A DNA stretch of 64,000 bases from an uncultured Candidatus Rokubacteria bacterium. GTDB taxonomy: Bacteria; Methylomirabilota; Methylomirabilia; Rokubacteriales; DASRDR01. The translations under genes and the position numbers were made by a program. Under the pieces are notes generated by a model. It saw nothing but the letters and a program-made list of their open reading frames with translations, did no database searches and was not told the DNA's origin. The stretch covers positions 40,331-104,330 of the forward strand of contig CAVPSB010000028.1 of the NCBI GenBank assembly GCA_963708025.1, written 5' to 3'. Shown piece after piece: positions 29,505 through 61,649 of this stretch (position 1 is the stretch's first letter; each line of letters opens with the position of its first letter).

Positions 29505-29549
29505 GAGCGTGGGAAGGAATCCGGTCGTCCGGCCCCCCCTCCCCGGTGG

Positions 29550-38064: not shown

Positions 38065-39453
38065 ATGAGTGCGCTGGCGACCGCGACGACCATCGAGAGC
38101 GAGTACGGCGCCCGGTTCCCGGGCTCGTTCGCGCTGTGGGAGCGGGCGCGCCGGCTCGTCCCGTCGGGGATCAACCACGACGTCCGGCGGATCGTGCCGT
38201 TCCCGCTCTACATGGACCACGCCCAGGGCTGCCGGAAGTGGGACGTTGACGGCAACGAGTTCCTCGACCTCTGCACCGGTCACGGGTCGCTCATCCTCGG
38301 CCACGGCCACCCGGCCATCGTGAAGGCGATCCAGGAGCAGACGGCGCGCTTCACCCACCCGTCGGCGCCGACGCCGCTCGAGGTCCGGTGGGCGGAGCTG
38401 GTGACGCGCCTGGTGCCGTGCGCGGACATGGTGCGCTTCCTCCTCTCGGGGACCGAGGCGACCATGCTGGCCATGCGGCTGGCCCGGGCGCACACCGGCC
38501 GCGACGTGGTGGTCAAGATCCACGGCCACTTCCACGGCTGGCACGACTACGCGATGATCGGCTACATGCCCCCGTTCGACGTGCCCTCGTCGAGCGGGGT
38601 GCCGGGCGTCATCGCGCAGACCATGCGGGCGGTGCCGCTCCACGACCTCGACGCCATGGAGGCGGCGCTCCGGCCCGGCGACGTCGCGGCGGTCATCCTC
38701 GAGGCCGACGGCCCGCTGGCGGGCACGGTGCCGGTCGCGCCCGGGTACCTGGCGGCGCTCCGCGAGCTGACCACCCGCCACGGCGCGCTCCTCGTCTTCG
38801 ACGAGGTAGTCACCGGCTTCCGGCTGGCGCCGGGCGGGGCCCAGCAGCACTTCGGCGTGACCCCGGACCTGGGGACCTTCGCCAAGATCGTGGCCGGCGG
38901 CATGCCGGCGGGGGCGGTGGCCGGCCGCCGGGAGATCATGGGCGACATCGCCTTCCGCGACGACGCGGCCTGGAATCGCCGGAAGCGGGTCCGGCACATG
39001 GGCACCTTCAGCGCCTATCCGCTGGCGGCGGCGGCGGGGGTCACCGCGCTCGAGCTCCTGGCCGACGGGCAGCTCCAGGACCGGGCGGCCGCGCTGGCGG
39101 AGCGGCTCCGGGCCGGGATGAACCGGGCGATGGCCGACGCCGGCGTCTCCGGGAGCGCCTACGGGTGCCGCTCCATCGTGCGGATCATCGTCGGCGACGA
39201 CCTGCCGGCGATTCACGACCCCGCCGAGTTCACCCGGGCGGTCCCGCCGGCGCGGCTCATCGAGAACATCCGGCCGCCGCTCCTGCAGTCGCTGCACGCG
39301 GCCATGCTCCTCGAAGGCCTCGACGTCCTCGGCGGCAGCCACGCCTGGACGTCCGCGGTGATGACCGAGTCGGACATCGACGACGCGGTCGGCCGGTTCG
39401 CCCGGGCCCTCCACCGGGTGCGGCGGGAAGGGCTGCTGGCCGGCCGGCGGTGA
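38065..39453 (+). CDS. Class III aminotransferase (GSA aminomutase-like)
   Basis: DVDGNEFLD, SGTEA, FDEVVTGFR and AKIVAGG (PLP lysine). Confidence 0.9.
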   Translation: MSALATATTIESEYGARFPGSFALWERARRLVPSGINHDVRRIVPFPLYMDHAQGCRKWDVDGNEFLDLCTGHGSLILGHGHPAIVKAIQEQTARFTHPSAPTPLEVRWAELVTRLVPCADMVRFLLSGTEATMLAMRLARAHTGRDVVVKIHGHFHGWHDYAMIGYMPPFDVPSSSGVPGVIAQTMRAVPLHDLDAMEAALRPGDVAAVILEADGPLAGTVPVAPGYLAALRELTTRHGALLVFDEVVTGFRLAPGGAQQHFGVTPDLGTFAKIVAGGMPAGAVAGRREIMGDIAFRDDAAWNRRKRVRHMGTFSAYPLAAAAGVTALELLADGQLQDRAAALAERLRAGMNRAMADAGVSGSAYGCRSIVRIIVGDDLPAIHDPAEFTRAVPPARLIENIRPPLLQSLHAAMLLEGLDVLGGSHAWTSAVMTESDIDDAVGRFARALHRVRREGLLAGRR

Positions 39454-39454
39454 G

Positions 39455-40210
39455 ATGGGCCAGGACCGGGTGGTGCTCATCACCGGGGCCGCCAACGGCA
39501 TCGGCCGGGCGATGGCCGCCGGGTTCCACCGGGACGGCTTCGCCGTCGTCGGGGTCGACAACGACGCCGGGGGCCTGGCCGCCATCGCCCCGGTCTGCGC
39601 GCTGACGGCCGTCACCGACGTGGTCGACCCCGCCCAGGTGGACGCCGCGGTCGAGGCCGCGTTGGCGAGGCTGGGGCGGATCGACGTCCTGGTCAACGGA
39701 GCGGGCGTGATCCTCGATCGCCGGGTGGCCGAGCACGGCGAGGGCGAGTTCGAGCGCGTGGTCCGGATCAACCTCTTCGGCGCCTTCTACTTCATGCGTG
39801 CCGACCATCCCGGTGATGCGGCGGCAGCGGTACGGCCGGATCGTCAACTTCGCGTCGCGGGCGGCCGAGAACGCCACGCCGGGGCTGTCGGCGTACGGCG
39901 CCTCCAAGGCCGGCATCTTCACCCTGACCCAGTGCGCGGCCAGCGAGGTGGCCGGGGACGGCATTCTCGTCAACGCGCTCATTCCCGGCGACACGCGCAC
40001 CGCGATGAACCCGGCGGCGAAGCAGGAGCCGGAGGCCGTCTATCCCTACCTGCGGGAGCTGGCCACGCTGCCGGCCGGGGGGCCGAGCGGGAAGGTCTTC
40101 CGCTACGGGAGGGAGTACCCGCTGTTCCAGCCCAAGGGCGACGGGCTGCCGGTGGCCCTGACGCCGAGCCGGACGCAGGCCTCCAGCCAGCCCGAGGAGG
40201 CGATCCGTGA
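39455..40210 (+). CDS. SDR-family oxidoreductase; frameshift near 39800, 3' end approximate
   Basis: TGAANGIG and VNGAG in the first frame; GRIVNFAS and YGASK in the shifted frame. Confidence 0.8.
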   Translation: MGQDRVVLITGAANGIGRAMAAGFHRDGFAVVGVDNDAGGLAAIAPVCALTAVTDVVDPAQVDAAVEAALARLGRIDVLVNGAGVILDRRVAEHGEGEFERVVRINLFGAFYFMRADHPGDAAAAVRPDRQLRVAGGRERHAGAVGVRRLQGRHLHPDPVRGQRGGRGRHSRQRAHSRRHAHRDEPGGEAGAGGRLSLPAGAGHAAGRGAEREGLPLREGVPAVPAQGRRAAGGPDAEPDAGLQPARGGDP

Positions 40211-41515
40211 AGGGCGTCCGCCAACGTCTTCGTGCACCGACCTCGTCGACGAAGGGCACGACGCGGTCCTGGACAACCTCCAGGAGCGGGGCGGCCTCGA
40301 CGGGATCACGGTCGCCTGCAACTACCATCACTCCCGGGACGTCTTCCCCCACAACCCGCGCCACCGGGTCATCTACTTCACGGGCGAGCACTTCTTCGAG
40401 CCCGACCGCCGGCGCTACGGGCGCATCCAGCCGGTGGTGAGCCCGCTGGCCGAGCGCGATCCCCTGCGCGTCCTGGTGACCAAGGCCCGCCAGCGCGGCA
40501 TGGCGGTGCGGGGCTGGGTCAACTTCCTCCACAACAGCCGGCTCGGCCAGCGGTACCCGGAGTGCGCGGTCGCCAACGCGTTCGGCGACCGCTACCTGAA
40601 CGCGCTCTGCCCCGCCAACCCCGACTGCCGGGCCTACGTCCGCGCCTTCGGCGGCGACCTCGGGACCTACGGGCTGGAGGCGATCCGCGCGGAGAGCGTC
40701 GGCTACATGCCCTTCGAGCACGGCTATCACCACGAGCGGTGCTTCGTCCCCCTCTCGCCCGTCGCCCGCTTCCTCATGGGGGTGTGCTTCTGCGACGCAC
40801 TGCATCGCCGCGGCCCGGGCGGCCGGCATCGACGGGGAGGCCGTCCGGAAGTTCGTCGAGCGGGAGCTCGGGCGGGCCCTCGGCGGGGACCCCGGACCGC
40901 TCGACGCGGTGCCCCTCACGCGGGAGGCCGTCGGCGCGCTCGATGGCCGGGGAGCTCGGGGGGTACCTGGCGACCCGGGAGCGGACGGTCACCTCGCTGG
41001 TCGCGGAGGCCACCGAGGCCATCCACGCCGCCGGCCGCGCGGGCGGCCGATCGGACTTCGTCGTGGTCGAGTGGTCCGGCGGCCTGCGGGCGCCCTCGTC
41101 GGGGATGACGGTGGCCGGGAGCCAGGGCGCGGCCGTCGACCGGGCCTGGCAGGACGGCATCGCGCTGGACGCCCTGCTCGGCGCCTGCGACGGCATCTCG
41201 GTGCTCGGCTACGTCGGCGACCGCGCCCGGCTGGCGGCGGACCTCGAGGCGTACGCGCCCCGCATCCCCGCCGGACGCTCCCTGTCGGTGTCGCTGCGGC
41301 CCATGCTCCCGGACTGCGGGAGCGCCGAGGAGCTGCGGGCCCGGACGGCGCTCGTGGCCGGCTTCGGGCCCCGGTGGATCGAGTTCTACCATTACGGCTT
41401 CGTGCCGCTCGAGCGGCTCGACTGGATCCGGAGCGCGCTCGAGGCGGCGCGCGAGACGGTGGCATCCGAGCGGGGCGCCCCACCCGGGCGCCCGACAGGA
41501 GGGACGCGCCCGTGA
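40207..41515 (+). CDS. Conserved hypothetical TIM-barrel / glycoside-hydrolase-like protein with several frameshifts
   Basis: Segments DLVDEG..VLD, NYHHSRD..PHNP, LHNSRLG, LCPANP, HGYHHE, CFC and FYHYG lie in successive frames; SD GGAGG and GTG at 40207. Confidence 0.6.
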
Positions 41516-46175: not shown

Positions 46176-48428
46176 ATGAGACACCCGGCCACATCCCCGA
46201 CCGCATCCCTCACCGCCGTCCCGTCCTCCGGCGGGCGGCTCGTCGCTCCCGACGGGCGCACGCTCGCCCTCCGCGGCGTCGCGCTGCGGGCCGAGGCGGG
46301 CGGCGGGCTCGCCCGGGTCGTGCTGGAGCAGCGGTTCCGGAACGCCCACCCCGACCCCCTCCAGGTCACGTACCTCCTGCCCCTGCCCGCCGACGGGGTC
46401 GTCTCCGCCTTCGCGTTCCGGATCGGCGAGCGCCGGGTCGTCGGCGAGGTCGACCGGCGGGCCGCCGCGCGCGAGCGGTTCGAGACGGCGCTCCTGGAGG
46501 GCCGTACGGCCGCGCTCGTCGAGCAGGACCGGGCGGCCCTCTTCACCCAGGAGATCGGGAACATCCCGGCCGGCGCGGAGGTCGTGGCCGAGCTGGTGAT
46601 CGACCAGCGGCTGGGCTGGCTGGACGAGGGGGCCTGGGAGTGGCGGTTCCCGACGGTCGTCGCGCCCCGCTACCTCGGCGCCGGCGGCCGGGTGGCCGAC
46701 GGGGAGCGGGTGACGGTCAACGTCGTCGAGCCGCCGACGGACATCGGAGCGAGCCTCGCGCTGGTGATCCGCGACGGGCTCCGCGAGGGCCGCGCCCCCG
46801 AGTCCCCCTCGCATGCGCTGCGGGTCGCGCCCGGAGGCCCCGGGCTCGAGGTCCGCTTCGACGGCGAGGGGGCCGTCGCCCTCGACCGCGACGTCGTCGT
46901 CCGTTGGGCCGTGGCGCGGCCCACCACCGGCCTGGCGCTGGACACCGGGCGGCCCGCCGGCGACCAGCCCCACGCGGACGCCGCCTACGGGCTCCTGACC
47001 CTCGTGCCTCCGGCCGCGGAGGAGCGCCCTCCGGCGTTCCCCCGCGACCTGGTCGTGCTGCTCGACACGAGCGGGTCGATGGCCGGCGCACCCCTCGACC
47101 AGGCCCGGCGGGTGGTCGGGGCGCTCGTGGAGAGCCTCGACGACGCCGACCGGCTCGAGCTGCTCGCGTTCTCGGATCGCCCGCTCCGGTGGAAGCCGCG
47201 CCCCGTGGCGGCGACCGCGGCGGCCCGGGCCGAGGCCCGCCGCTGGCTGGACGGGCTCCAGGCGGGCGGCGGGACCGAGATGGCCACGGCGGTCAGCGAG
47301 GCGCTCCGACCGCTCCGCCCCGACGCCCAGCGCCAGGTCGTGCTGGTCACCGACGGCCTCGTCGGCTTCGAGTCGGAGATCGTGGCGGCCGTCGCCGGCG
47401 CGCTGCCGGCCGGCTCGCGGCTCCACACGGTCGGCGTCGGCTCCGCCGCGAACCGCGGGCTCACGGCGCCGGCCGCCCGCGCCGGGCGCGGGGCCGAGGT
47501 CATCGTCGGCCTCGACGAGGACCCGGGGCCGGCGGCGGGGCGGCTCGTCGCCCGCACCCGCACGCCGCTCCTGACGGAGCTGGAGCTGAGCGGGAGTGCC
47601 CTCCTGGAGAGCGCGCCCGCGCGGATCCCCGACGTGCTGGCGGCCGCCCCGGTGCTGGTCGCCGTCCGGCTTCGCCCGGAGGGCGGCGAGGTCCGGGCCC
47701 GAGGGCGGACGACGGCGGGGCCCTGGACCGGCAGCCTGGTCGTCGCGCCCGTGGCCGCCGGTGCCGGGAATCCGGCGGTGGTCGTCCACTACGGCCGGGA
47801 GGCGGTGGAGGACCTGGAGGTCCGGCGGGTCGCCGAGGAGGACGCGGCGCTCGACGGCGCCATCGAGCGGCTCGGGCTGGCCTTCCAGATCGCGACGCGG
47901 CTCACCTCGTGGGTGGCCGTGAGCGAGGAGCCGGGCGTGGACCCGCGCGCGCCGTGGCGCCGCGAGCGGATCCCGCAGGCGCTGCCCCACGGCATGTCGG
48001 CGGAGGGCCTCGGGCTCCGGGGGCCGCGCCTGACACTCGCTCTTCGGCAGGAGCCCTCCCGCGCTGCTTTCCATGAGCTCGCATCGGCTGTCGCGAGCGT
48101 GGCCGAGCCCGGATATCTTCTCGAGCGGCGCCCCGTGATGCTGACGGGCCGCCTGGTGCGCTGTGATGGGCTCCAGCTGGTCCTCGAGATCAGCCTCGAG
48201 CGGAGCGTGGACTGGCACCCCGAGGCTGCGGAGGTGGCCTGGCTGGACGGTGCTCGTCTCGACGCCGAGATCGACTGGCAGCACACGACCCGGGAGGGCC
48301 GACCGACTCGGGGTCAGGTCATCCGGCTCGTGCTCCGGCTGCCGGCCGGGGCGCCGGCCGCCGCGCCGGTCCGGATCGTCCTGACCGGCGAGGGCGGACC
48401 GCTGACGATCCACGTCCGCGCCGGATGA
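46176..48428 (+). CDS. VIT domain plus von Willebrand factor A domain protein
   Basis: VIT-like region (Q.F.N...Y.LPLP....V..F...IGER; FTQEIGNIP), MIDAS DTSGSM, GGGTE and VTDG; SD AGGAGG. Confidence 0.88.
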   Translation: MRHPATSPTASLTAVPSSGGRLVAPDGRTLALRGVALRAEAGGGLARVVLEQRFRNAHPDPLQVTYLLPLPADGVVSAFAFRIGERRVVGEVDRRAAARERFETALLEGRTAALVEQDRAALFTQEIGNIPAGAEVVAELVIDQRLGWLDEGAWEWRFPTVVAPRYLGAGGRVADGERVTVNVVEPPTDIGASLALVIRDGLREGRAPESPSHALRVAPGGPGLEVRFDGEGAVALDRDVVVRWAVARPTTGLALDTGRPAGDQPHADAAYGLLTLVPPAAEERPPAFPRDLVVLLDTSGSMAGAPLDQARRVVGALVESLDDADRLELLAFSDRPLRWKPRPVAATAAARAEARRWLDGLQAGGGTEMATAVSEALRPLRPDAQRQVVLVTDGLVGFESEIVAAVAGALPAGSRLHTVGVGSAANRGLTAPAARAGRGAEVIVGLDEDPGPAAGRLVARTRTPLLTELELSGSALLESAPARIPDVLAAAPVLVAVRLRPEGGEVRARGRTTAGPWTGSLVVAPVAAGAGNPAVVVHYGREAVEDLEVRRVAEEDAALDGAIERLGLAFQIATRLTSWVAVSEEPGVDPRAPWRRERIPQALPHGMSAEGLGLRGPRLTLALRQEPSRAAFHELASAVASVAEPGYLLERRPVMLTGRLVRCDGLQLVLEISLERSVDWHPEAAEVAWLDGARLDAEIDWQHTTREGRPTRGQVIRLVLRLPAGAPAAAPVRIVLTGEGGPLTIHVRAG

Positions 48429-49000
48429 CCCTCGACGACCACCTGCCGGGCATCGTCAGTGGCGATGCCGAGGCCTTCGCCCGCTGGCTCGCGGGCGCCG
48501 AGCGGCGGCTGCGAGGCAGCCTGCGGGCCTTCGCGGTGCGCGTGGACACCGAGGCCGTGCTCCAGGAGACGCTCCTGCGCGTCTGGCAGGTGGCGCCCCG
48601 GTTCGTGCCGGACGGCCGCCCGGACGGGCTCCTCCGCCTCGCGATCCGGATTGCGCGCAACCACGCGGTCTCCGAGCTGCGCCGCGACCGGCTGGTGCCG
48701 GCCGACCTCGAGGCGCTGGAGCGCGCGGCGCGCCAGCACGACGACGATCCGGGGCCGGCCACGACCAGCGACCCCCTGCTCCGGCGCGCGATCGAGGAGT
48801 GCCGGGCGAGGCTCCCGCGGAAGCCGGCGCTCGCCCTCGGCGCCCGGCTCGAGAGCGGCGGCGTCGAGCCGGACGAGGCGCTGGCCGCCCACCTCGGGAT
48901 GCGCCGGAACACGTTCCTCCAGAACATCACGCGAGCCCGCCGGCTCCTCCTGGAGTGCCTCGGCCGGCGGGGCATCGACGTGACGGCGGAGCTGGCGTGA
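48425..49000 (+). CDS. ECF-type RNA polymerase sigma factor
   Basis: Region 2 (EAVLQETLLRVW...IARN.A...LRR) and region 4 (LA..LGM...T.....TRARR.L..CL); ATGA overlap. Confidence 0.8.
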   Translation: MTLDDHLPGIVSGDAEAFARWLAGAERRLRGSLRAFAVRVDTEAVLQETLLRVWQVAPRFVPDGRPDGLLRLAIRIARNHAVSELRRDRLVPADLEALERAARQHDDDPGPATTSDPLLRRAIEECRARLPRKPALALGARLESGGVEPDEALAAHLGMRRNTFLQNITRARRLLLECLGRRGIDVTAELA

Positions 49001-49215
49001 CGCCCGAGGAGCTGATCGAGGCCGCCAGCACCGCCTGGCGCCCGCGCGATCCCTCGGGGGCGATCCAACCGCACCCGGCCTGGGCGGACCTCGACGCCGC
49101 CGGCCGCCGCACGCTCTACGAAGCGATCGTCCGCACGCGGGCGCTGGAGGCGGCCCTCGACGCCGAGGGCCTGACCACGACGGCGCGGGCCGTCCTCGCC
49201 CGCATCCGCCGCTGA
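48997..49215 (+). CDS. 72-aa hypothetical protein coupled to the ECF sigma factor
   Basis: GTGA overlap with the sigma stop codon; MTPEELIEAASTAWRPRD...HPAWADLD...LARIRR; GC3-rich codons. Confidence 0.65.
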   Translation: MTPEELIEAASTAWRPRDPSGAIQPHPAWADLDAAGRRTLYEAIVRTRALEAALDAEGLTTTARAVLARIRR

Positions 49216-49227
49216 GAGTGTCGAGCG

Positions 49228-49634
49228 TCATCGTGGCTTCCGACGTCGAGCCCGCATGTGTCGCTGGACGAACACGGCCACTTCGGGTTTGCTGACCTCT
49301 CCCGTCGCCACGCCGACCACCACGCGCTCGAGCTCCTCGGGATCAGCCTCCAGCCAGTGGTCGTTCAGGCCCAGAAACGCGAGGAGCGCCACGAGCCCCA
49401 CCCGCTTGTTCCCGTCGACGAACGGGTGGTCCCGCACCAGGTGGAAGAGGTAGGCTGCCGCGATCTCGTGCAGGCTGCCGTGGAGCAGCCGTCCCTCGAA
49501 CGTGGCGGACGGCGTGCCCAGCGCCGACTGGAGCAAGCCGACGTCCCGGATGCCCGGCCGGCCCCCGTATCGCTCGATCTGGTCCGCGTGGAGCGCGAGC
49601 ACCTCGTCGAGCGACAGGAAGCGTGGTCTCGCTA
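49228..49634 (-). CDS. doc: Doc (death-on-curing, Fic-family) toxin
   Basis: RFLSLDEVLALH, GIRDVGLLQSAL and HPFVDGNKR. The first canonical start (GTG 49602) falls inside the conserved N-terminus, so the true start is uncertain. Confidence 0.88.
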
Positions 49635-49859
49635 CTGGGCCAGGCGCCGGAACACTCCCCCGTACTGCCGGTGGGCCTCTTCGACGAGCCGCTTCAGCTT
49701 CAGGGTTCGCCGCCGCTCGCGAAGCGGCGAGACCACGATCACTTCACCGTCCGTGGAGACCTCGAGCGGGGTACGCGCATCGATCTTCAGTCGCGCCAGC
49801 ATTGGCCGGTCCAGGACCAGCGCCAGGCTGTTGCCTGTCTTCACGAGCCTCTTGACCAT
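49632..49859 (-). CDS. AbrB/MazE-family antitoxin
   Basis: MVKRLVKTGNSLALVL swapped-hairpin start and terminal YGGVFRRLAQ; directly upstream of doc. Confidence 0.88.
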   Translation of the reverse strand: MVKRLVKTGNSLALVLDRPMLARLKIDARTPLEVSTDGEVIVVSPLRERRRTLKLKRLVEEAHRQYGGVFRRLAQ

Positions 49860-50060
49860 GGGCGGCGCCTCCGTACGTACAGTATGCCACAGCCGTCAGT
49901 ATTGAGGCATCTCCGGGAATCGGCTGGTCGCGACGCAGACACGTCGGATATGCTGGACGTGGGCGAGGACGGGCGGCGCCCCGGCATTTCCACGTTCAAG
50001 CGGGACCCACCTCTCCGTGGCGACTTGACCGGGTGATTGCTACTGCAATAGCCCCCAGAA

Positions 50061-50786
50061 ATGGCGGCGGGACACGACGAGGGGGTCGGGGCGGCGATCC
50101 GGCGGCAGCGGGAGTCTCTCGGGCTCTCGCAGCGCGCGCTGGCCAAGCGGGCTGGGGTCTCGCAACCCTACCTCTCGCAACTGGAGGCGGCGACGCGACG
50201 CCGGGTCAGCGTCGGCATCCTCCGTCGCCTGGCCGAGGCCCTGGGTGTCCCGACCGCCCACCTCGTGGACAGCGAGCCGTCCGGCCTGCCGCGGCGTGGC
50301 CGGACCGAAGTGTGGCTGTACCGGATGGCGGAACGGGCCGAGCAGATGCGGCAGGACTCGCACGAGGTGCGGGAAGGCCGGCTGCTGCCCCGGCCGTGGG
50401 ACATGTCCGGGGCGACGATCTATCGCCGCGGCGGGCGGCTCCCCCACCCCGGTGACGTCATCGTGCTGTGTCGCGTGGCCGGCGGCGATGACGCCGCGGG
50501 CCTGTGGGGGCTCGGCGTGATCACCGAGTTCAGCGAAGCCCGGCAGCTTCGATTTCGCGCCCTGCCGCCGACCGAGACGCTCCAGGCAACGCCGCGCTGG
50601 GGCCCGACGGTGAGGCGCCTGATCGAGGGAAGCCCGGCCGCCGGCGGCGATGCCATGTGGCGGGTCCGGGAGGCGAAGCAGGTCGCGGTCCTGATGCGCG
50701 AGATCTCGGACGAGCTCGCCGGCGGGTGGCTCCGGGAGTGGGCGCGGCGGGACCCGCCCGCCTGGCGGATCACTCCTTGGTCTTGA
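50061..50786 (+). CDS. XRE-family HTH protein with a C-terminal EVE/PUA-like domain
   Basis: LSQRALAKRAGVSQPYLSQLE HTH (clear); the C-terminal VWL...W...PGDVIVL...GLWGLGVI pattern is an inferred assignment. Confidence 0.7.
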   Translation: MAAGHDEGVGAAIRRQRESLGLSQRALAKRAGVSQPYLSQLEAATRRRVSVGILRRLAEALGVPTAHLVDSEPSGLPRRGRTEVWLYRMAERAEQMRQDSHEVREGRLLPRPWDMSGATIYRRGGRLPHPGDVIVLCRVAGGDDAAGLWGLGVITEFSEARQLRFRALPPTETLQATPRWGPTVRRLIEGSPAAGGDAMWRVREAKQVAVLMREISDELAGGWLREWARRDPPAWRITPWS

Positions 50787-51012
50787 GCTGGGCGTCGTTC
50801 TCCCGGATGAAGGCGCGGATCTCGTCGGCCACGTCGAGGAGCTTCAGCCACTGCTCCTTGTAGAGGGTGACCGGGAAGCGTCCCAGCCCGTAGACCGAGA
50901 CCCCGCCCTTGTCGCTCACCCGGAGGCTGATCCCCTTGCGGGCCCGGGACTTCAGCGCCTCGTTCTCGGCCCGCAGGCGGGCCAGCTCGGCCTGGGGGTT
51001 CTCGTCGGCCAT
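50770..51012 (-). CDS. 80-aa hypothetical protein
   Basis: SD GAGGGAG, an N-terminal coiled coil, then VSDKGGVSVYGLGRFPVTLYKEQW. Confidence 0.8.
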   Translation of the reverse strand: MADENPQAELARLRAENEALKSRARKGISLRVSDKGGVSVYGLGRFPVTLYKEQWLKLLDVADEIRAFIRENDAQLKTKE

Positions 51013-51025
51013 CGAAGGCTCCCTC

Positions 51026-52361
51026 CTACTTGACCCGCGCGACGACCCGCCGGACGGCGTCCACCAGCGTCTCGATCTCGGCCTCGCCGGTCATGGTGCC
51101 CAGCGCCCCGGCCAGCCCGGTCTGCAGGAGGACCCCCTCGTTCAGGAGGCCGACGAAGACCGCGCGCTTGAGCTCCGGGTCCCCGGTCAGCATCGCCCGG
51201 TAGTCGGTGACCGGCTGGGCCGTGAAGTGGAGCCCGAACAGCGAGGCCACGCCCGTCACCTGGGCGGGGACGCCGAGCTCGGCGAGGGCGGCCCGCAGCT
51301 TCCCCCGCAGGGACTCGCCCAGGTCGGCCAGCCGCCGGTAGATCGCGGGGGTCAGCGAGCGCATGACGATCTCGCCCGCGACCATCGTCATCGGGTTGGC
51401 GTTGAAGGTGCCGGCGTGGGCGATCCGGGCGCCGGCCCCGCTCGGGTCGAACTGGGCCATGATGTCCCGGCGGCCGCCGAAGGCCCCGACCGGCAGCCCG
51501 CCCCCGATGATCTTGCCCAGGCACGTCAGGTCGGGGGCCACGCCGAACAGCTCCTGGGCGCCGCCCGGCGCCACCCGGAGGCTCTGCACCTCGTCGAAGA
51601 TCAGGACGATGCCCAGCTCCTCGGTGACCTTCCGGATGCCGCGGAGGAATTCCGGCCGGCCCGGCACGTAGCCGAACGACGACATGATCGGGCTCCATGA
51701 TGAGGCAGGCCAGCTCGCCGGCGTGGGCGCGCAGCAGCCGCTCGCTCGCCGCCAGGTCGTTGTACGGCAGCACGACGACCTCGCGGAGGACGCTGGCCGA
51801 CTGGCCCGGGTACTCGGGGATCGCCGTCGGCCCGGCGGGGTCGAGCTTCGCCGCCGGCGGCTGGACGCTGACCGCCACGTACTCGTGGGCGCCGTGGTAC
51901 GCGCCCTCGAACTTGGCGATCTTGGGCCGGCCCGTGAAGGCCCGCGCGGCCCGGATGGCCATCAGCGTGCCCTCGGTGCCCGAGTTGGTGAAGCGCACCG
52001 TGTCCAGCGAGGGGATGCGGTCGCACAGGAGCTGGGCCAGGCGGACCTGGGACACGGTCGGCGTGCTGAAGGCGGTGCCCTTCGCCGCCTGGGCCGCGAT
52101 CCCCTCCACCAGCTCGGGGTGGGCGTGGCCGAGGATCAGGCTGGTCGCGTTGAGCATGAAGTCGAGGTACCGGTTGCCGTCCGCGTCGTAGACGTAGTGG
52201 CCCTCGCCGCCCTCGGCGAAGAACGGATAGGGGGCGAAGTAGGCGGTCCCCCGGGAGCTGCCGCCCGGCAGCACGCGGGCGGCCTCGGCCTGGAGCGCCC
52301 GCGACTTCGGGGTCCGGGCCTCGTATCGCTGGATCTCCCGCTCGAGCGCGGCTGAGGCCAT
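51026..52361 (-). CDS. Class III aminotransferase (GSA aminomutase-like); +1 frameshift near 51690
   Basis: DADGNRYLD, NSGTEG, IMEP in one frame; FDEVQS, GKIIGGGLP and HAGTFN in the other. Confidence 0.88.
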
Positions 52362-52373
52362 TCCTAGCTCCCT

Positions 52374-54366
52374 CTACTTCATCATCAGGCTGACCTGGCG
52401 GTCGAACGCCTGATCCGCCTCCACCTTCACCTTGTAGCGGCTCCGGGCCGTGTCGAGGATCGTCTTCGCGAACTGCGGGTGGTCGCGGAGGACGCGGTTG
52501 AAGTCGGCCTTGTCGAGCACGAACAGCTCGCAGTAGGTCGCGGCCCGGACCGACGCGTTGCGCGGCTCGGACAGGAGCAGGCCGATCTCGCCGAAGAAGC
52601 TCCCCTCGCCGAGGTGGGCGAGGACCCGGCCGTCGGCGCCCACCACGTCCACCTCGCCCTTGACCAGGACGTACATCTCGTTGCCCATGTCGCCCTCCCG
52701 GATGACCACCTCGCCCGGCGCGGCCACGACCGGCTTCAGCGCCAGCGCCAGCTGGTGCCGGAAGACCTCGTCAGTCCCCTGGAAGAGCGGCACCGTGTCG
52801 AGGACGTCGCGGTTGACGACCTCCAGCCACTTCCGGCCGTCCCGCTCGATGAGGTCGAACGACGGCCTTGGGTCCCCAGGACCCGGCGGGGTAGTTGGGG
52901 AACTCGTCCGCGGGCGTGGCGGCCCAGAAGTCGAGGAGCGGCTGGGCGACCCGCCAGGCGGTCTCGACCAGGTCGCTCCGGGAGAAGAGCATCGCGTCGC
53001 CCTGCATGCAGCTGTAGAGCATCACCTCGTAGCCGGTGGCGCGGGACGCCTCGAACGACTCCCGGTAGTCGAAGCGCATGTTGACCTTCTGGAGGCTCAT
53101 CGACGGCCCCGGGTTCTTGGCCTGGAAGCGCAGCTCGATGCCCTGGTCGGGCTGGATGTGGAAGATGAGCTGGTTCGAGTCGAGCCGGGGGACGCCGGGG
53201 AGGTCGCGGAAGATCACCTCCGGCGCCTTCTTGAACTGGACCAGGATCTCGGTGCCGCGGCTCCACAGGGCCTTGCCCGAGCGCAGGTAGATCGGCACGC
53301 CCTCCCAGCGCCAGTTGTCGATGAAGAGCTTGAGGGCGGCGAAGGTCTCGGTCCGCGACTGGGGGTCGACGTCCGCCTCCTGGCGGTAGCCGACCGTCTC
53401 CTTCCCGTCGGCCTTCTTGCCCGGGCCGTACTGGCCGCGGACGGTCAGCTTCCGGACGTCCTCGGGCTGCATGATCCGCACGGCGTCGAGCACCTTCGCC
53501 TTCTCGTTGCGGATGGCGTCGGGCTTGAAGGAGGTCGGCGGCTCCATGCAGAGGTAGGCCAGCATCTGGAACATGTGGTTCTGGATCATGTCCCGGAGGA
53601 CGCCCGACCGCTCGTAGTACTTGCCCCGCCCCTCGACCCCGACCGTCTCGGCGACCGTGATCTGGATGTGGTCGACGTGGTCCTTGTTCCAGAGCGGCTC
53701 GAAGATCCCGTTCGAGAAGCGGAAGGCCAGGAGGTTCTGGACCGTCTCCTTCCCGAGGTAGTGGTCGATCCGGTAGATCTGCTCCTCGTTCCAGTGGGCG
53801 AGCATCGTCCGGTTCAGCTCGATGGCCGAGGCCAGGTCGTGGCCGAACGGCTTCTCGACGATCACCCGGCGCCAGCCGCGCTCGCTCTTGTTGCCGCCGA
53901 CCTGGGCCAGGTTCTCCGAGATCAGCCCGAAGACCACGGGCGGCGTCGCGAAGTAGAAGAGGACGTTGCCCTCGGTGTGCCACTCGGTGCCCAGGCGCTC
54001 GACCAGCTCGCTCAGGCGCTCGAAGACCTTGGGGTCGTCGAAGCGCCCGGGCATGTAGTGGAAGCGGGGGACGAGGTCCCGCCACACCGCCTCGTCGAAC
54101 TGCTTCCGCGTCGAGAACTGCTTGATGTCCTTCGACATCTTCTCGCGGAACTGCTCGGTCGTGAACTCGTCCAGGCTCACCCCGATCAGGCAGAAGCCCT
54201 TCGGCAGGAGCCCGTCACAGGCGAGGTTGTAGAGCGCGGGCATGAGCAGCCGCTTCGTGAGGTCGCCCGACGCTCCGAAGATGACCATGGTGCAGGGCTG
54301 GCCAGGCGCCTCCCTCAGCGCGGCGCTCTGGTCCATCGTCGTCGTGATCCGAGTCTCCTCGGCCAT
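52374..54366 (-). CDS. zwf: Glucose-6-phosphate 1-dehydrogenase with probable C-terminal cNMP-binding domain; +1 frameshift near 52863
   Basis: GASGDL, EKPFG, RIDHYLGKE and WRWEGVP; the downstream frame continues FDLIERDGRKW...VPLF...FFGEIGLL..PRNASVRA. Confidence 0.9.
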
Positions 54367-54564
54367 GGGGTCCCTCCTCGGTGGGATGTTGACGCATCAT
54401 CGCGGGTTCCGGGCCCGCGGTCAAGCCCGGGGCGGCCGACCGCCGGACCGCACCGCCCGACCGCCTTCTTGCGGGCGGCCCGCGCCTCGGTTAACCTGTC
54501 CCCGCCCTCGGGACGGGCGTCGTCTCGCCGCGGAAATGACGCGACAGAGCCACGGAGAGCCTCC

Positions 54565-57082
54565 ATGAGCACGCTGCCCGAACGCGCGAGTGTCGTGGTG
54601 ATCGGCGCGGGGATCGTCGGCAACAGCCTCGCCTATCATCTGGCCCGCCTCGGCTGGAAGGACATCGTCCTGCTGGACAAGGGTCCGATGCCGAGCCCGG
54701 GCGGGTCCACCGGGCACGCCTCGAACTTCATCTATCCGGTGGATCACTCGAAGGAGATGACGCTCTTCACCCAGGAGAGCGTGCGACAGTACCGGGCCCT
54801 CGGCGTCTTCACCCAGAGCGGCGGGGTGGAGGTGGCCCGGACCCCGGAGCGCCTGGACGAGCTGAAGCGGCGGCTCGCCTCGGCCAAGGCCTGGGGCGAG
54901 CCGGCCGAGCTGCTCACGCCGGCCGAGGTCCAGGCCCGGGTCCCGTTCCTCGACCCGAAGGTCATCCTCGGCGGCTTCTTCTGCCCCGGCGTCGGCGTGG
55001 TGGACTCCCTGCGCGCCGGCACGCTGATGCGCGAGCAGGCCCAGGCGCAGGGCGCGCTCACGGTCGTCCCCAACACGGAGATCCTGGGGATCGACGTCGA
55101 GAAGGGCCGGGTGCGGGGCGTGCGCACCAGCCGCGGCGCCATCCGGGCGGACGCGGTCGCGATCTGCTGCGGCGTCTGGAGCCCGCGCATCGCCCGCATG
55201 GCCGGGGCGTCGATCCCGCTGACCCCGGCCGTCCACCAGATGATCGACGTGGGGCCGGTGCCGCTGTTCGCCACGACCACCGGCGAGATCGAGTACCCGA
55301 TCGTCCGCGACATGGACACCAACATGTACGAGCGCCAGCACGGGGCCGAGCTGGAGATCGGCTCCTACGCCCACCGGCCGATCCTGGTCGACCCCGACGA
55401 CATCCCCTCGCTGGAGGCGTCGGCCCTGTCGCCGACCCAGCTCCCCTTCACCAAGGAGGACTTCGATCCCCAGATGGAGCAGGCGCTCGAGCTGATGCCG
55501 GACATCCTCGGCGACGAGAGCGTCGGGATCCGCCTGGCCATCAACGGGCTGCTCTCGTTGACGCCGGACGGCTCCCCGATCCTCGGCGAGACCCCCGAGG
55601 TGCGCGGGCTGTGGTCGGCCGCCGCCATCTGGATCAAGGAGGCGCCGGGCATCGCCAAGACGGTGGCGGAGTGGATGACCGGCGGGGTGCCGGAGATCGA
55701 TCCCCACGGCTCCGACGTCGCCCGCTTCTACCCGCACGCGCGGACCCGGACGCACGTCCACGCGCGCACCGCCGAGGGCTACAACAAGACCTACGGCATC
55801 GTGCACCCCGCCGAGCAGTGGGCCTCCAACCGGAACGTGCGCCTGAGCCCCTTCCACGCGCGCGAGCAGGCGCTGGGGGCGGTGTTCTTCGAGACGGCCG
55901 GCTGGGAGCGCCCGCACTGGTACGAGTCGAACCGGACGCTGCTCGCCGGGTACGGCGAGCGCGCCCGGCCGCGGCCCGCCGAGTGGGACGCCCGCTGGTG
56001 GTCCCCCATCATCAACGCCGAGCACCTGGCCATGCGCGACCGGGTCGGGATGGTCGACCTCACCGCCTTCGCCGTGTTCGACGTCGCGGGGCCCGGGGCC
56101 CTCGACTACGTGCAGCGCCTGCTCGTCGCCCAGGCCGACGTCCCCGTCGGCCGCGTGGTGTACACGCCGCTCCTGAACGAGCACGGCGGGCATGAAGGCC
56201 GACCTGACCGTCCTCCGGCTCGGCGACGCCCACTTCCGGATCGTCACCGGCGGCGGCCTCGGGATGGTGGACCGGAAGTGGTTCGTCGACCACCTCCCGC
56301 CCGACGGCTCGGTCCAGCTCGCCGACCTGACCTCCGCCTGGTGCACGGTCGGCGTGTGGGGGCCGCGGGCGCGGCAACTGGTCCAGTCGGTCACCGCCGA
56401 CGACGTCTCCCACGCCGGCTTCCCGTTCGCCACCTGCCGGGAGATCACCCTGGGGCCGGTCCGCGCCCTCGCCTCCCGGATCTCCTACGTGGGCGAGCTG
56501 GGCTGGGAGCTGTACGCGCCCATGGAGGAGGGCCAGCGGCTCTGGGACCTCCTGTGGGACGCCGGCCAGCCGCTCGGCGTCGTCCCGGTCGGCATCGGCG
56601 TCTACGGCACCACCGGGCGTCTCGAGAAGGGGTTCCGCGCGTACGGCAACGAGCTCGAGCAGGAGTACACCCTGGTCGAGGCGGGGATGGCCCGGCCGAC
56701 GGTCAAGCCCCAGGCGTTCATCGGCAAGGAGGCGTACCTCCGGCAGCGGGCCGAGCCTCCGGTGGCCGTGCTCTGCACGCTGACCGTCGACAGCCACGTC
56801 GCCGCGTCCGGGGTCCCCCGCTACATGCTGGGGCGGGAGCCGATCGTGACGCCGGACGGCGCGCCGCTCGTCGACCGGAAGGGCCGGCGGTCCTACGTGA
56901 CCAGCGCCGGTGCCGGTCCCTCCGTGGGCAAGTACCTCCTGATGGGCTACCTCCCGCCGGACCAGGCGAAGGTCGGCACGCGCCTGGCCGTCGAGTACTT
57001 CGGCGACCGCTACCCGGTCACCGTCGCCGTGGCGGGGAGCACGCCCCTCTTCGACCCCGACAACCGCCGCATGAAGCAGTGA
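54565..57082 (+). CDS. GcvT-family FAD-dependent dehydrogenase (dimethylglycine/sarcosine dehydrogenase-like); +1 frameshift near 56190
   Basis: IGAGIVG, GSTGHA, TPDG.P, GWERP.W, SYVGELGWE, RLEKG and FDPDN. Confidence 0.88.
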
Positions 57083-57829
57083 ACGTCCTCGTCTGCGTGA
57101 AGCGCGTCCCGGCCGCGGCCGGGAAGATCACCCTCACCGCCGGACCAGCAGGAGATCGACACCCGCCACCTCGCGTTCACGATCAGCCCCCACGAGGAGT
57201 GCGCCGTGGAGGAGGCGGTCCGGCTGGTCGCGGCCCACGGCGGCAGCAGCACCGTCCTCACGCTGGGACCCGAGGCCGCCACCGAGCAGCTCCGCGACGC
57301 CATGGCGATCGGGATCGAGCGGGCCGTGCTGCTCGAGACCGACGGTCGGGAGTGGGACCCGATGGCGACCGCGACGGCGATCGTGGACGCGATCCGCGGC
57401 CAGGCGTTCGACCTCCTCTTCTTCGGCAACGAGGCCGCCGACACCGGCGACTACCAGGTCGGCATCCGGGTGGCGCACGCCCTCGACCTCCCCTGCGTGA
57501 CCGGGGTGAAGGGCATCGAGATCCGGGACGGCCGCGTGGTCGCCCGGCGGGAGGCCGCGGGCGGCTGGGAGATCTTCGAGGTGCCGCTGCCGGCGGTGCT
57601 GACCGTCAAGGAAGGGCTCAACCTCCCGCGCTACCCGTCGCTCCCCGGGCGGCTCCGCGCCAAGAAGAAGGCGATCGAGACGATCCGCCCGCAGCCCGTC
57701 GAGGGCGGTCTCACGAAGGTGCGCCTCCTGCCCGCGAAGGAGCGGGGCAGCCAGGTGGAGGTCCTGGGCCGCGGGGCCACCGCCGCCCCCCGGGCAGTCG
57801 ACCTCCTCCGCACCCTGGGCCTCCTCTGA
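57079..57829 (+). CDS. etfB: Electron transfer flavoprotein beta subunit; +1 frameshift near 57140
   Basis: VLVCVKRVP, SPHEECAVEEA, GNEAADTG and N.PRYPSL. Confidence 0.88.
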
Positions 57830-57852
57830 GGATGCGCGGGCTGCGATCGTCC

Positions 57853-57897
57853 ACTCCCTCTCCCTCCCGGAGGGAGGGAGAGGGTGGGGTGAGGGTG
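57853..57897. repeat. REP-like hairpin between etfB and etfA
   Basis: CCCTCTCCCTCCC...GGGAGGGAGAGGG stem followed by TGGGGTGAGGG. Confidence 0.5.
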
Positions 57898-57921
57898 GGT
57901 CCAAGAACACGGGTCCAAGGC

Positions 57922-58896
57922 ATGATCCTGGGCCTGATCGAGCACGACCGCGGCATGCTGAACGAGCGGTCACTCGAGATGCTCACGCTCGCCCGGCGCC
58001 TCGCCCAGCGCATCGGCGTCCCGCTCCACGCGGTCCTCGTCGGCCACGAGGCCCGGCCGCTCGCCGCGCCGCTCGCGGCGTACGGGGTGTCGGCCGCGCA
58101 CCTCGTGGAGCACGAGCGGCTCGGCGACTACGCGCCGGGCGCCTGGGCCCGGAGCGTCATGGCGGTCATGGAGGCCGAGCGCGCCCAGGCGGTCCTGGCC
58201 TCGGGGACCGAGCGCGGCAACGAGGTGCTGGCCCACGTCGCGGCGCGGACCGGGCTCCCGATGGCCGCGAACTGCATCGAGGTCGAGCCTGGCGAGTCCT
58301 GGCTGGTCACGCGGCTCCGCTGGGGCGGGAGCCTCCTGGAGGAGGCCCGGCTCACCGGGGCGGTGAAGCTCCTGACACTGGCCCCGCACGCCATCCCGGC
58401 CGAGGAGGCCCCGGCGGCCGGCGAGGTCACGATCAAGTCCCTCACGCCCTCCTTCACCGACGCCGACCTCCGGGTCCGGGTGACCGGGCGGATCGACGCG
58501 GCCCGCGGCGGCGTCTCGCTGACGGACGCCCGCATCGTGGTCAGCGGCGGCCGCGGCGTCGGCAGCCCCGAGGGCTTCAAGGTCCTCGAGGAGCTGGCCG
58601 GGCTCCTCGGCGCCGCCGTCGGGTGCTCGCGGGTCGCCACCAGCCTCGGCTGGCGCCCGCACGCCGACCAGGTCGGCCAGACCGGCACCCGGGTCGCCCC
58701 CGAGCTCTACATCGCCTGCGGGGTGAGCGGCGCCATCCAGCACCTGGTCGGGTGCAAGGGCGCCAAGCGCATCCTGGCCATCAACACCGACCCCGAGGCG
58801 CCCATCGTCGTCAAGGCCGACTACGCCATCATCGGCGACCTCCACGCCGTCCTCCCCGCCCTGATCGCCGAGATCCGCAAGGCCCGGGGCGCCTGA
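57922..58896 (+). CDS. etfA: Electron transfer flavoprotein alpha subunit
   Basis: VSGGRG, QVGQTG, GVSGAIQH and INTDPEAPI. Confidence 0.93.
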   Translation: MILGLIEHDRGMLNERSLEMLTLARRLAQRIGVPLHAVLVGHEARPLAAPLAAYGVSAAHLVEHERLGDYAPGAWARSVMAVMEAERAQAVLASGTERGNEVLAHVAARTGLPMAANCIEVEPGESWLVTRLRWGGSLLEEARLTGAVKLLTLAPHAIPAEEAPAAGEVTIKSLTPSFTDADLRVRVTGRIDAARGGVSLTDARIVVSGGRGVGSPEGFKVLEELAGLLGAAVGCSRVATSLGWRPHADQVGQTGTRVAPELYIACGVSGAIQHLVGCKGAKRILAINTDPEAPIVVKADYAIIGDLHAVLPALIAEIRKARGA

Positions 58897-58909
58897 CCCC
58901 GGACCTCGT
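58767..58909 (+). repeat. Direct repeat, copy 1 (etfA 3' end plus 13 nt)
   Basis: Recurs at 63167-63290. Confidence 0.95.
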
Positions 58910-59030
58910 CGGCCGTTTCCCACGAGCTACCATCCCCGCACGCCCGAGACGTCAACCCTTTGCGATCATTGCGGTGTCCGGCGCGGTCGCGCTACACTCC
59001 AGCCACTCCGGGGGCGGGCAACCCGCGTGA

Positions 59031-59211
59031 CGGGAAGAGGGCTTTGGAGGGCCCAGGTTCCTCGAACACGTCGTGAGCCGCGCGGCAACCCGCCTCGGTT
59101 GCACCAGGGTGACCGTACGGCTGACTGTCCGGCGCGGCACTCGCTCGTTCAGCCCACTTCACCGAGGTGGCCACGCGCCACCTGGGTGCGCCGGTCGCGC
59201 CGCTGTTCCCG
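59031..59211 (+). ncRNA. Candidate structured ncRNA (6S-like rod)
   Basis: Promoter-like TTGCGG-N18-TACACT at 58969-58998; nested stems CGGGAA/TTCCCG, CCCAGGT/ACCTGGG, GAAC/GTTC and GCCGCGC/GCGCGGC; no convincing ORF. Confidence 0.3.
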
Positions 59212-59215
59212 GGCT

Positions 59216-60145
59216 TCAGCGCTCCGACCGGCGCGTGGCCCGGGGTCCTGGGCTAACAAACGCCCTCGCCCGGCATTCCGCGATGAGCCGGGCCGCGAAG
59301 CGGCCGGCCGCGGCGCCGCGGCGGAACCCAGGCCGGTGCACCAGCGTGACCGGCAGCGCCGGCACCGCCGCCCGCTCCCACCGGACCCGGCCCCGATCCA
59401 GCTCCGCCAGGGCGAGCGCGGGGGCCAGGCCCACCCCCAGTCCTCCCGAGACGTAGGCGAGCAGGAGCGACACGCTCGGCACGTCGATGGTGGAGGTGGG
59501 CTGGATGCGCTCGCGCGTCAGGTAGTCCTCCAGCAGCCGCCGGCCCTGGCTGCCGACGCCGAGTCGGAGCAGGGGCTCACGGGCGAGGCCGTCGGACAGG
59601 GGCACGCGCCTCCCGGGCCGTCGGGGCCCGACCCAGACAAAGGGCTGATCGAAGAGCCGCTCGGCCTCGAGCCCGCGCGGGATCTCCTGGCCGGTGACCA
59701 CCGCGCAATCCACCTCGCCGAGCCCCACCAGGCGGACGCCCTCGCGCGAGTGGGTGGTGGCGATCTCGAATCGCAGCGGCACCCGCTCTTCCAGGAGCTC
59801 GCGCAGCACCGGCACCAGCAGGGCCTTGCCGAGGTAGTCACTGACCGCGACGCGCAGAGTCGCGGGTGGGCGACCGGACAGCTCGGCCAGGTGGGCGAAG
59901 AGGGCCTCCGTCTCGGTGCCGAGCTTCAGGATGCCGGGCAGGGCGGCCTCGCCCGCCGCGGTGAGCCGGACGCCGCGGCCCGCCCGCTCGAGGAAGGTCA
60001 CGCCGAGATGGCGCTCGAGCTTCCGGATCTGCTGGCTGATCGCGGAGGAGGTGCGATGGTGCAGCCGCGCCGCCGCCCCCACCGAGCCGCTGCGCGCGAC
60101 AGTGAGGAGGCTCAGCAGGGCCGGGAGAAGGGCGGCGTCGATCAT
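59216..60145 (-). CDS. LysR-family transcriptional regulator, divergent from leuCD
   Basis: [21 protein letters not shown]...F.R.GR...LT.AG; TAAGAT lies 6 nt before the ATG. Confidence 0.9.
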
Positions 60146-60245
60146 TAGCAGATCTTACGGGACCGGCAAGAATATTTCACTATACTTAACGCTCTGCCGG
60201 CGGCACACTCAACGGGCCGGCTGCTCACCGGCCACGGAGGAGACG

Positions 60246-61649
60246 ATGGCGTCAACCCTACTCGACAAGGTCTGGGATGCTCACACGGTGCGCACGCTGC
60301 CCTCGGGGCAGACGCAGCTCCTGATCGGGCTCCATCTCATCCACGAGGTCACCTCGCCCCAGGCCTTCCAGGCCCTGCAGGAGCTCAAGCTGCCGGTCCG
60401 GATGCCGGGGCGGACCTTCGCGACGCTCGATCACATCATCCCGACCACCGCCCAGCAGCGGCCGTTCGCGGACGAGGTGGCGGAGGAGATGGCGGTGCAT
60501 CTCACCCGCAATTCGGAAAAGAGCGGGGTGTCGTTCTTCGGCCTCGACAGCGGCCGGCAGGGCATCGTGCACGTGATCGGACCCGAGCTCGGGCTGACCC
60601 AGCCGGGCATGACCATCGCCTGCGGGGATAGCCACACCGCGACCCACGGCGCGGTCGGGGCCATCGCGTTCGGCATCGGCACCAGCCAGGTGCGCGACGT
60701 CCTGGCCACCCAGTGCCTGGCCATGGCCAAGCCCAAGCTCCGCCAGGTGCGGGTGGACGGCGCGCTCTCCAAGGGCGTCTACGCCAAGGACGTCATCCTG
60801 GCGATCATCCGCACCCTGGGCGTCAACGGGGGCGTGGGCTACGCCTACGAGTACGCGGGGACGGTGGTGGACCGGATGACGATGGAGGAGCGGCTCACGC
60901 TCTGCAACATGTCGATCGAAGGCGGCGCCCGCTCCGGCTACGTCAACCCGGACCAGACCACCTTCGAGTACCTGCGCGGCCGCCCGTACGCGCCGCAGGG
61001 CACGGCGTTCGACCGCGCGGTGACGTGGTGGAAGAGCATGGCGTCCGACGCCGACGCTTCCTGCGACGACGTCAAGCGGCTCGACGGCACCGCCATTCCG
61101 CCGATGGTGACCTGGGGCATCAACCCGGGGCAATCGGTCGGCGTGAGCGAGCGCATCCCGTCACCCGAGTCGGCGCCGGAGCCGGAGCGCGCCACCTACC
61201 GCGAGGGCCTGGCCCACATGGGCTTCGCGGCCGGCCAGCCCATCGCGGGCGCCAAGATCGACGTCGTGTTCATCGGCTCCTGCACGAACTCGCGGATCTC
61301 GGACCTGCGCGTGGCCGCCGCGGTGGCCAAGGGCAACCGGGTGGCCAAGGGCGTGCGGGCGATCGTGGTGCCGGGCTCGCAGCTGGTGGCCAAGGCCGCG
61401 GAGGCCGAGGGGCTCCACGAGGTCTTCCGCGAGGCGGGCTTCGAGTGGCGGAACGCGGGCTGCTCGATGTGCCTGGGCATGAACGACGACAAGCTGCGGG
61501 GACGCGAGATGAGCGCGTCCACCAGCAACCGCAACTTCATCGGGCGCCAGGGCAGCCCCACCGGCCGCACCCTGCTGATGAGCCCGGCCATGGCCGCGGC
61601 GGCCGCGCTCCACGGTGCGGTCACCGACGTGCGGGAGATGATGCGATGA
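60246..61649 (+). CDS. leuC: 3-isopropylmalate dehydratase large subunit
   Basis: [29 protein letters not shown] and STSNRNF.GRQG. Confidence 0.95.

Follow-up and report, generated by a model that had tools for sequence, protein, structure and literature searches.

In a 64,000-nucleotide stretch of contig CAVPSB010000028.1 from an uncultured Candidatus Rokubacteria bacterium (the whole of which we call the window), we analysed a minus-strand locus at positions 52374-54366 where a gene for the glucose-6-phosphate dehydrogenase (G6PD) Zwf is followed, in the adjacent reading frame, by the coding sequence of a cyclic-nucleotide-binding domain (CNBD). The zwf frame is lost after ...NYPAGSWGPKA (residue 501, codon 52866-52864), and the second frame, running from 52859 to 52374, reads FDLIERDGRKWLEVVNRDVLDTVPLFQG...FFGEIGLLLSEPRNASVRA...MMK and a stop; after FDLIERDGRKW, the usual end of Zwf, it continues with LEVVNRDVLDTVPLFQG and then with a full CNBD. 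The features of this locus are as follows.

54366..52771, minus strand: first open reading frame (ORF) of 531 residues, Zwf to residue 501 and then 30 non-Zwf residues to the stop
54366-54364, minus strand: ATG start codon, with GGAGG at 54377-54373, eight bases upstream
52864..54366, minus strand: Zwf catalytic part, residues 1-501 (Pfam; G6PD_N at residues 28-211, G6PD_C at residues 213-502)
52860..52864, no strand: frame-break site, one base surplus against all intact homologues and against ~95% identical metagenome contigs
52374..52859, minus strand: second frame of 161 residues and a stop, with the Zwf tail FDLIERDGRKW, the linker and the CNBD
52791..52826, minus strand: linker LEVVNRDVLDTV of 12 residues, joining the final Trp of Zwf to the PLF with which the CNBD begins
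52479..52724, minus strand: beta-roll core of the CNBD, cNMP_binding (PF00027; Pfam, residues 46-127 of the second piece)
52542..52598, minus strand: phosphate-binding cassette FFGEIGLLLSEPRNASVRA, read from the second frame

The span from 52374 to 54366 measures 1993 nt, or 3x664+1 (that is, 3n+1), and with one base removed it gives 663 codons and a stop. Third-position GC (GC3) is 0.98-1.00 on either side of the break, and in a GC3 phase plot the phase switches at ~52860-52870 without an intergenic dip. These observations support the conclusion that both frames belong to a single gene, which encodes a 663-residue Zwf-CNBD fusion, and annotators should merge both ORFs.

Our Pfam searches matched the N-terminal Zwf domain to G6PD_N (1.8e-63; PF00479) and the C-terminal one to G6PD_C (1.2e-114; PF02781), the latter over profile positions 1-284 of 296 and ending at the break. 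The former contains FGASGDLTKR, in which GxxGDL is the dinucleotide motif, and the catalytic part contains RIDHYLGKE and RDMIQNH, the catalytic motifs of these enzymes being RIDHYLGKE and the histidine of RDMxQNH. These three motifs and EKPFG are all invariant across the family, and the family-invariant residues D201-E207 and H264 are kept in the window. The window Zwf is a predicted catalytically complete enzyme, one that would reduce NAD(P)+ in a glucose 6-phosphate (G6P)-dependent reaction.

The second frame matched cNMP_binding with an E-value of 1.1e-24 (86.6 bits against a curated cut-off of 27.5, profile positions 4-89 of 89), and its cassette, with Gly-Glu and Arg-x-Ala, reads FGEIGLLLSEPRNAS in the window. 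For the alignments and the fold model we let an intact homologue, P0004, stand in for the window gene, and the CNBD residue numbers given here follow that protein. A reading of the window gene across the break by means of a four-letter codon was rejected, since those four letters occur again in frame beyond it. The cassette residues G588, F591, G592, E593, R602 and A604, and R643 in the last helix, are the same in 47/47 members of the family, as would be expected for a working sensor of cyclic nucleotide monophosphates (cNMP). The linker is exactly 12 residues long in 47/47 members, with E515 kept in 46/47, N518 in 43/47 and R519 in 46/47, and by its sequence it looks like a fixed connector and not a flexible tether; mean pairwise identity in the family alignment is 0.72 for the catalytic part against 0.57 for the CNBD. 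The first-pass annotation of this DNA, made from its letters, had proposed that the zwf frame breaks right after GSWGPKA, that the adjacent frame leads from the Zwf tail into a full cNMP domain, that the 3n+1 span would give about 663 residues once one base is removed, and that the phosphate-binding cassette is intact. These points were confirmed, respectively, by the ORF reading, by the cNMP_binding match, by the 1993 nt of the span together with the 663 residues of P0004, and by the invariance of the cassette residues.

It is nevertheless conceivable, if unlikely, that the fusion is real and its C-terminal domain is not a cAMP/cGMP sensor, serving another ligand or acting as an oligomerisation or folding aid in the manner of some CRP/FNR-type domains. 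Some regulators do use a CNBD fold to bind ligands of another kind, the case for cAMP or cGMP is one made from sequence, and among the 47 members the position that follows the cassette Arg is variable (T in 29, N in 12, S in 3 and M in 1), a T/N/S variation that by itself would not settle a preference for cAMP or cGMP. Against such a domain of other function stand the Gly-Glu and Arg-x-Ala residues, which in PKA-type domains make the contacts with ribose and cyclic phosphate and which are invariant in 47/47 members, and the ~50 cyclase domains encoded in the genome. So does the nature of the best sequence matches, all proven cNMP binders: the nearest solved CNBD sequences were those of SthK (3.7e-31, residues 15-141), PKG, the PKA regulatory subunits and HCN. 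With these proteins the window domain shares the same cassette pattern, FGE...R-x-A, followed by B/C helices; their CNBDs, however, gate channels or kinases, and none is carried on a dehydrogenase.

An AlphaFold2 model of P0004, built from the 47-row alignment, had a predicted local distance difference test score (pLDDT) of 78.3 and a predicted template-modelling score of 0.75, and placed a beta-roll ahead of helices at 619-628 and 630-643. A Foldseek search of this model against the PDB returned only G6PDs, covering ~500 of the 663 residues, the best being the Synechocystis enzyme (9emm; 43-45% identity), and among the PDB matches listed, all of 534 residues or fewer, no chain spanned both domains. 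A complex prediction of the catalytic part (residues 1-514) against the CNBD (residues 515-663) with cAMP scored 0.24 and 0.00 against a mark of 0.32, and we count it neither way.

When the 161-residue second piece was searched against longer proteins, 148 matches were found among homologue clusters. Of the 120 listed, 101 had G6PD_N, G6PD_C and cNMP_binding in one protein of ~610-680 residues, 18 were shorter pieces with G6PD_C and cNMP_binding, and one was an unrelated eukaryotic protein. The fused architecture put forward in the first-pass annotation therefore exists well outside the window, with the homologues not always two genes. The closest of the matches listed was P0004, which has the length predicted for the repaired window gene and is identical to the first window piece at 465/501 positions and to the second at 146/161; the database labels of the fused proteins read simply glucose-6-phosphate dehydrogenase. 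A library clustered at 50% identity held one full-length representative (P0124, 657 residues) and fragments, the next matches being ordinary Zwf proteins of ~510 residues with at most 51% identity.

A scan of one genome per species gave 80 loci, of which 35 were fused by tblastn with P0004 and 45 matched the CNBD only. Among the fused loci 27 were single-frame (four of them cut by contig ends) and eight lay in two or more frames. Where the window frame is broken by one base, the family frame of ~640-680 residues is continuous in the ~95% identical contigs and in 27 of these 35 loci. All 35 come from metagenome-assembled genomes (MAGs), of at least six phyla; going by the record titles, whose assignment to phyla we have presumed, they are distributed as follows.

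Rokubacteria/Methylomirabilota: 12 fused loci
Planctomycetota: 10 fused loci
Acidobacteriota: 5 fused loci
Myxococcota: 3 fused loci
Thiogranum: 1 fused locus
Chthoniobacteraceae: 1 fused locus
no group given in the title: 3 fused loci

Of 250 other genomes sampled from the window's phylum, 16 had the gene, all in one family (16/159), and open frames of 679-702 residues were found in three genomes of the window's order. A full-text literature search, judged by titles and the starts of abstracts and with subscription journals outside its scope, found no description of a Zwf-CNBD fusion. The first-pass annotation had called the architecture one not known to be characterised, and this agrees with our finding no paper on it: G6PD and CNBD-regulated enzymes are each known kinds, and a G6PD carrying a CNBD was not found described.

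We then consider descent. An unrooted tree built from the catalytic domain alone (68 rows and 491 columns; a quick IQ-TREE run under the LG+C20 mixture model) placed all 23 fused rows in one clade with a Shimodaira-Hasegawa-like approximate likelihood ratio support of 100 and a stem length of 0.46. The window catalytic domain lies inside this clade as sister to P0004 (support 98), and one short row labelled unfused that also fell inside it proved to be a frameshifted fragment. The simplest reading of this tree is that the Zwf-CNBD enzymes had a single origin. Other proteins have an extra domain at the same end of Zwf, namely a CBS pair (P0185, 630 residues) or a 6-phosphogluconolactonase (P0139, 768 residues, and P0219); unlike the enzymes considered here they bear other appended domains and fall outside the CNBD-fused clade. 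A CBS pair would be a small-ligand sensor too.

As to the cause of the frame break, the junction in homologues reads GSWGPKAAFDLIERDGRKW or GPKTSFDL, so that the window has one surplus base within GCC GTC G/TTC. For comparison we used contigs from four runs in three studies, which are ~95% identical to the window and represent other strains. In all four runs the contigs bridging the break omit exactly one base, at 52860, 52863 or 52864, and the depth without one base at the site was 16.5 of 20.4 in run X1, 12.9 + 2.9 of about 18.7 in run X3, 4.68 + 2.1 of 6.78 in run X5 and 4.59 of 4.59 in run X6. Two of the bridging contigs, for instance, are 1062 and 801 nt long and show 44 and 27 substitutions respectively, each with one gap; over the 1993 nt the break is the sole uncompensated indel listed, a compensating pair at 52885/52888 occurring in minor contigs. 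The extra base posited by the first-pass annotation is thus partly borne out, being absent in contigs of four runs, but these contigs are from ~95% identical strains and speak for an intact frame as the norm in neighbouring strains, not for this strain's own DNA.

The two window pieces also keep 142/142 invariant and 139/139 near-invariant columns of the 47-member family alignment, and three more window genes are broken inside one Pfam domain (Aminotran_3, GCV_T and adh_short), with contiguous profile coordinates on the two sides of each break.

Just downstream, break near 51688, minus strand: class-III aminotransferase, Aminotran_3 profile 10-198 and then 198-372
~54600-57082, break near 56193, plus strand, divergent upstream: dehydrogenase with DAO, FAO_M, GCV_T and GCV_T_C, GCV_T profile 1-90 and then 91-253
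39365-40967, break near 39797, plus strand: short-chain dehydrogenase, adh_short profile 1-118 and then 119-192

From the related contigs without the base, the high GC3 on either side of it, the lack of decay in the conserved columns and these other domain-internal breaks in the window, we conclude that the extra base at 52860-52864 is very probably an assembly indel and not biology. With a GC3/Viterbi frameshift detector we obtained 499 candidates over 3.55 Mb of the genome (1.41 per 10 kb) and 12 over 168.6 kb of four related genomes (0.71 per 10 kb).

We think it improbable that the frameshift is real in this strain, where it would leave a fresh pseudogene, or a Zwf that is cut short and ends in 30 nonsense residues, perhaps together with a separate 139-residue CNBD protein from a GTG at 52793. 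The assembled sequence does read so, two other intact zwf genes in the genome could cover the function, the strain's own family is otherwise without the fused gene, and a fourth zwf on another contig lies in several frames with one TGA. Yet all 281 conserved family columns are kept, codon bias is perfect on either side of the break, contigs of close relatives are without the extra base, and on direct reading no Shine-Dalgarno sequence precedes the internal GTG; moreover, at least three other domain-internal frameshifts in 64 kb are too many for biology in a genome of 99.67% completeness. Programmed ribosomal frameshifting, by which a single mRNA would give both a short Zwf and a long Zwf-CNBD, has one point in its favour, the overlap of the frames with no stop codon at their junction, and nothing else. 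We give it almost no credence: 27/35 fused loci match in a single frame, the eight broken fused loci, from other assemblies, break elsewhere in the gene, and direct reading finds no slippery heptamer at the site (...AAG GCC GTC GTT...). No Rfam element reached the gathering score in 49000-58000. With the split of the window gene in all likelihood an assembly artefact, the practical upshot is a single merged entry in the annotation.

The genome has four G6PD_C matches, belonging to two canonical zwf genes, one fragmented gene and the fused one. The canonical genes (L021 on contig C18 and L022 on contig C25) end in ...DGRRWRRL and ...DGRAWRTL, each followed by a stop, with opcA (PF10128+PF20171) immediately downstream of each; in L021 the zwf ORF continues a long open frame from upstream. 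The fragmented match (L024-L027, 70921-71744 of contig C30) extends over several frames with one internal TGA and is a decayed copy or the product of further assembly indels. A phmmer search with the two OpcA proteins of the genome, which recover each other (2e-25 and 2e-17), found no OpcA match in 46374-60366 or in the 35 other fused loci (flanks of at most 4 kb). Unlike OpcA-dependent Zwf, then, the fused form has opcA in the flanks of 0/36 loci, whereas the two canonical paralogues of this genome have it. The fused enzyme is, as far as sequence can tell, a third and additional Zwf isozyme beside two OpcA-partnered ones, and the first-pass annotation's picture of a gated entry into the oxidative pentose phosphate pathway needs amending in that it is not the only entry, two canonical zwf+opcA pairs being present.

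The class III cyclase domain (PF00211) has 54 matches in the genome, and the fused CNBD has 14; these numbers indicate very rich cNMP signalling. In two close Rokubacteria loci (L028, 4491-8480, and L030, 4596-8486) a ~1330-residue open frame with transketolase, transaldolase and phosphoglucose isomerase domains lies directly downstream of the fused zwf. This frame may be a triple fusion, or may be in-frame neighbours in a high-GC genome, and in these loci the fused gene appears to lie within a pentose-phosphate operon. Among the fused loci compared there was no universal neighbour; an aldo/keto reductase is downstream of the fused zwf in eight loci of one Methylomirabilota subgroup (including L042, L045, L047, L048, L051 and L052). 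In the window the fusion has an aminotransferase downstream and a dimethylglycine/sarcosine-type dehydrogenase divergently upstream, with genes resembling those of electron-transfer flavoproteins to ~58896. The genes on the downstream side are these.

51029..52361, minus strand: class-III aminotransferase gene, beginning 12 nt past the fusion stop codon and itself frameshifted near 51688
50770-51012, minus strand, beyond the aminotransferase: 80-residue ORF without a Pfam match
50061-50786, plus strand, beyond the aminotransferase: 241-residue protein with an XRE-type helix-turn-helix

Several known systems bear on how the appended domain might work. The catalytic part of the model finds its best structural match in the Synechocystis G6PD (PDB 9emm/9emn), with a TM-score of 0.88 on the target, and the C-terminus of that enzyme belongs to the surface on which its activator, OpcA, makes contact, raising the affinity of the enzyme for G6P (PMC11648896). 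The regulator in cyanobacteria is a separate, redox-sensitive OpcA encoded beside zwf, whereas here a CNBD is covalently joined to the C-terminus. The authors of that account equate the OpcA-contacted surface with the site in human G6PD where structural NADP+ binds (PMC11648896). This human site is allosteric and stabilising and lies close to the C-terminal end of the beta+alpha domain; unlike the fusion with its added CNBD, the human enzyme has no extra domain, its ligand being a second NADP+ bound within the enzyme. The mycobacterial acetyltransferases MtPat (Rv0998) and MsPat also combine a bacterial enzyme with a PKA-like CNBD, and cAMP binding to them is described as causing a large conformational change that relieves autoinhibition (PMC8556138). 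Such a cAMP-activated acetyltransferase is the closest working analogy, with the difference that the CNBD there is N-terminal on a GNAT domain and here would act from the C-terminus of a central-carbon dehydrogenase.

On these grounds of comparison we propose that a CNBD attached at the extreme C-terminus of G6PD, where OpcA contacts the enzyme in Synechocystis, would act on the OpcA/structural-NADP+ allosteric site. The cassette would bind cAMP or cGMP made by one of the ~50 class III cyclases, the helices of the CNBD would shift together with the rigid linker, and this movement would change the affinity for G6P, the oligomeric state, or both. NADPH production would in this way come under second-messenger control in place of OpcA, whether by activation or by inhibition. 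We consider it probable that cAMP/cGMP control of G6PD is exerted by the CNBD through the C-terminal allosteric site. The broader proposal stands, in our estimation, at even odds: that a cyclic nucleotide gates the oxidative pentose phosphate pathway directly, at its first enzyme, that the CNBD, held by an invariant linker at the OpcA/structural-NADP+ site, would replace redox control by second-messenger control, and that this would be the property of a single-origin clade spread among uncultured bacteria of soil and freshwater in six phyla or more. For the reading as a whole, one 663-residue protein made of a complete Zwf, a fixed 12-residue linker and a PKA/channel-type CNBD, we would put the probability at roughly 65%.

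Several points weigh against this reading. The AlphaFold2 model of P0004 is of only moderate quality (pLDDT 78.3), and cNMP binding by the CNBD and its effect on catalysis are predicted properties. The best read run shares 0.31 of the sampled words of the stretch and none contains the strain's own reads, so a recent strain-specific frameshift is possible. The excess of GC3 detector candidates over related genomes is only two-fold, and of its 10 candidates in the window four were verified by Pfam continuity, five are candidates only, and one, at 29549, sits between two complete ABC ATPase matches and resembles an ordinary gene boundary; given these false positives and the modest excess, we prefer the Pfam-verified breaks as evidence. 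Finally, the fused gene was found in 0/20 genomes of the window's own family and contamination of the bin is 8.18%, so that the assignment of the contig to this organism is not certain.

The Zwf-CNBD family is abundant in MAGs of Rokubacteria/Methylomirabilota, Planctomycetota, Acidobacteriota and Myxococcota. No cultured-strain source appears among the record titles of family members, which may explain the lack of biochemical study of the fusion. What is known of cAMP in bacteria concerns mainly transcription, which it controls through CRP; direct cyclic-nucleotide allostery on an enzyme of central carbon metabolism would, if true, regulate metabolism at another level, and faster. The supply of NADPH is set by G6PD, and the C-terminal allosteric site of this enzyme, where OpcA and structural NADP+ act, is currently a topic of research. 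If the reading given here is true, a natural G6PD bearing a ligand sensor on this site would be a ready-made system for the study of transmission from the allosteric site to the active site.

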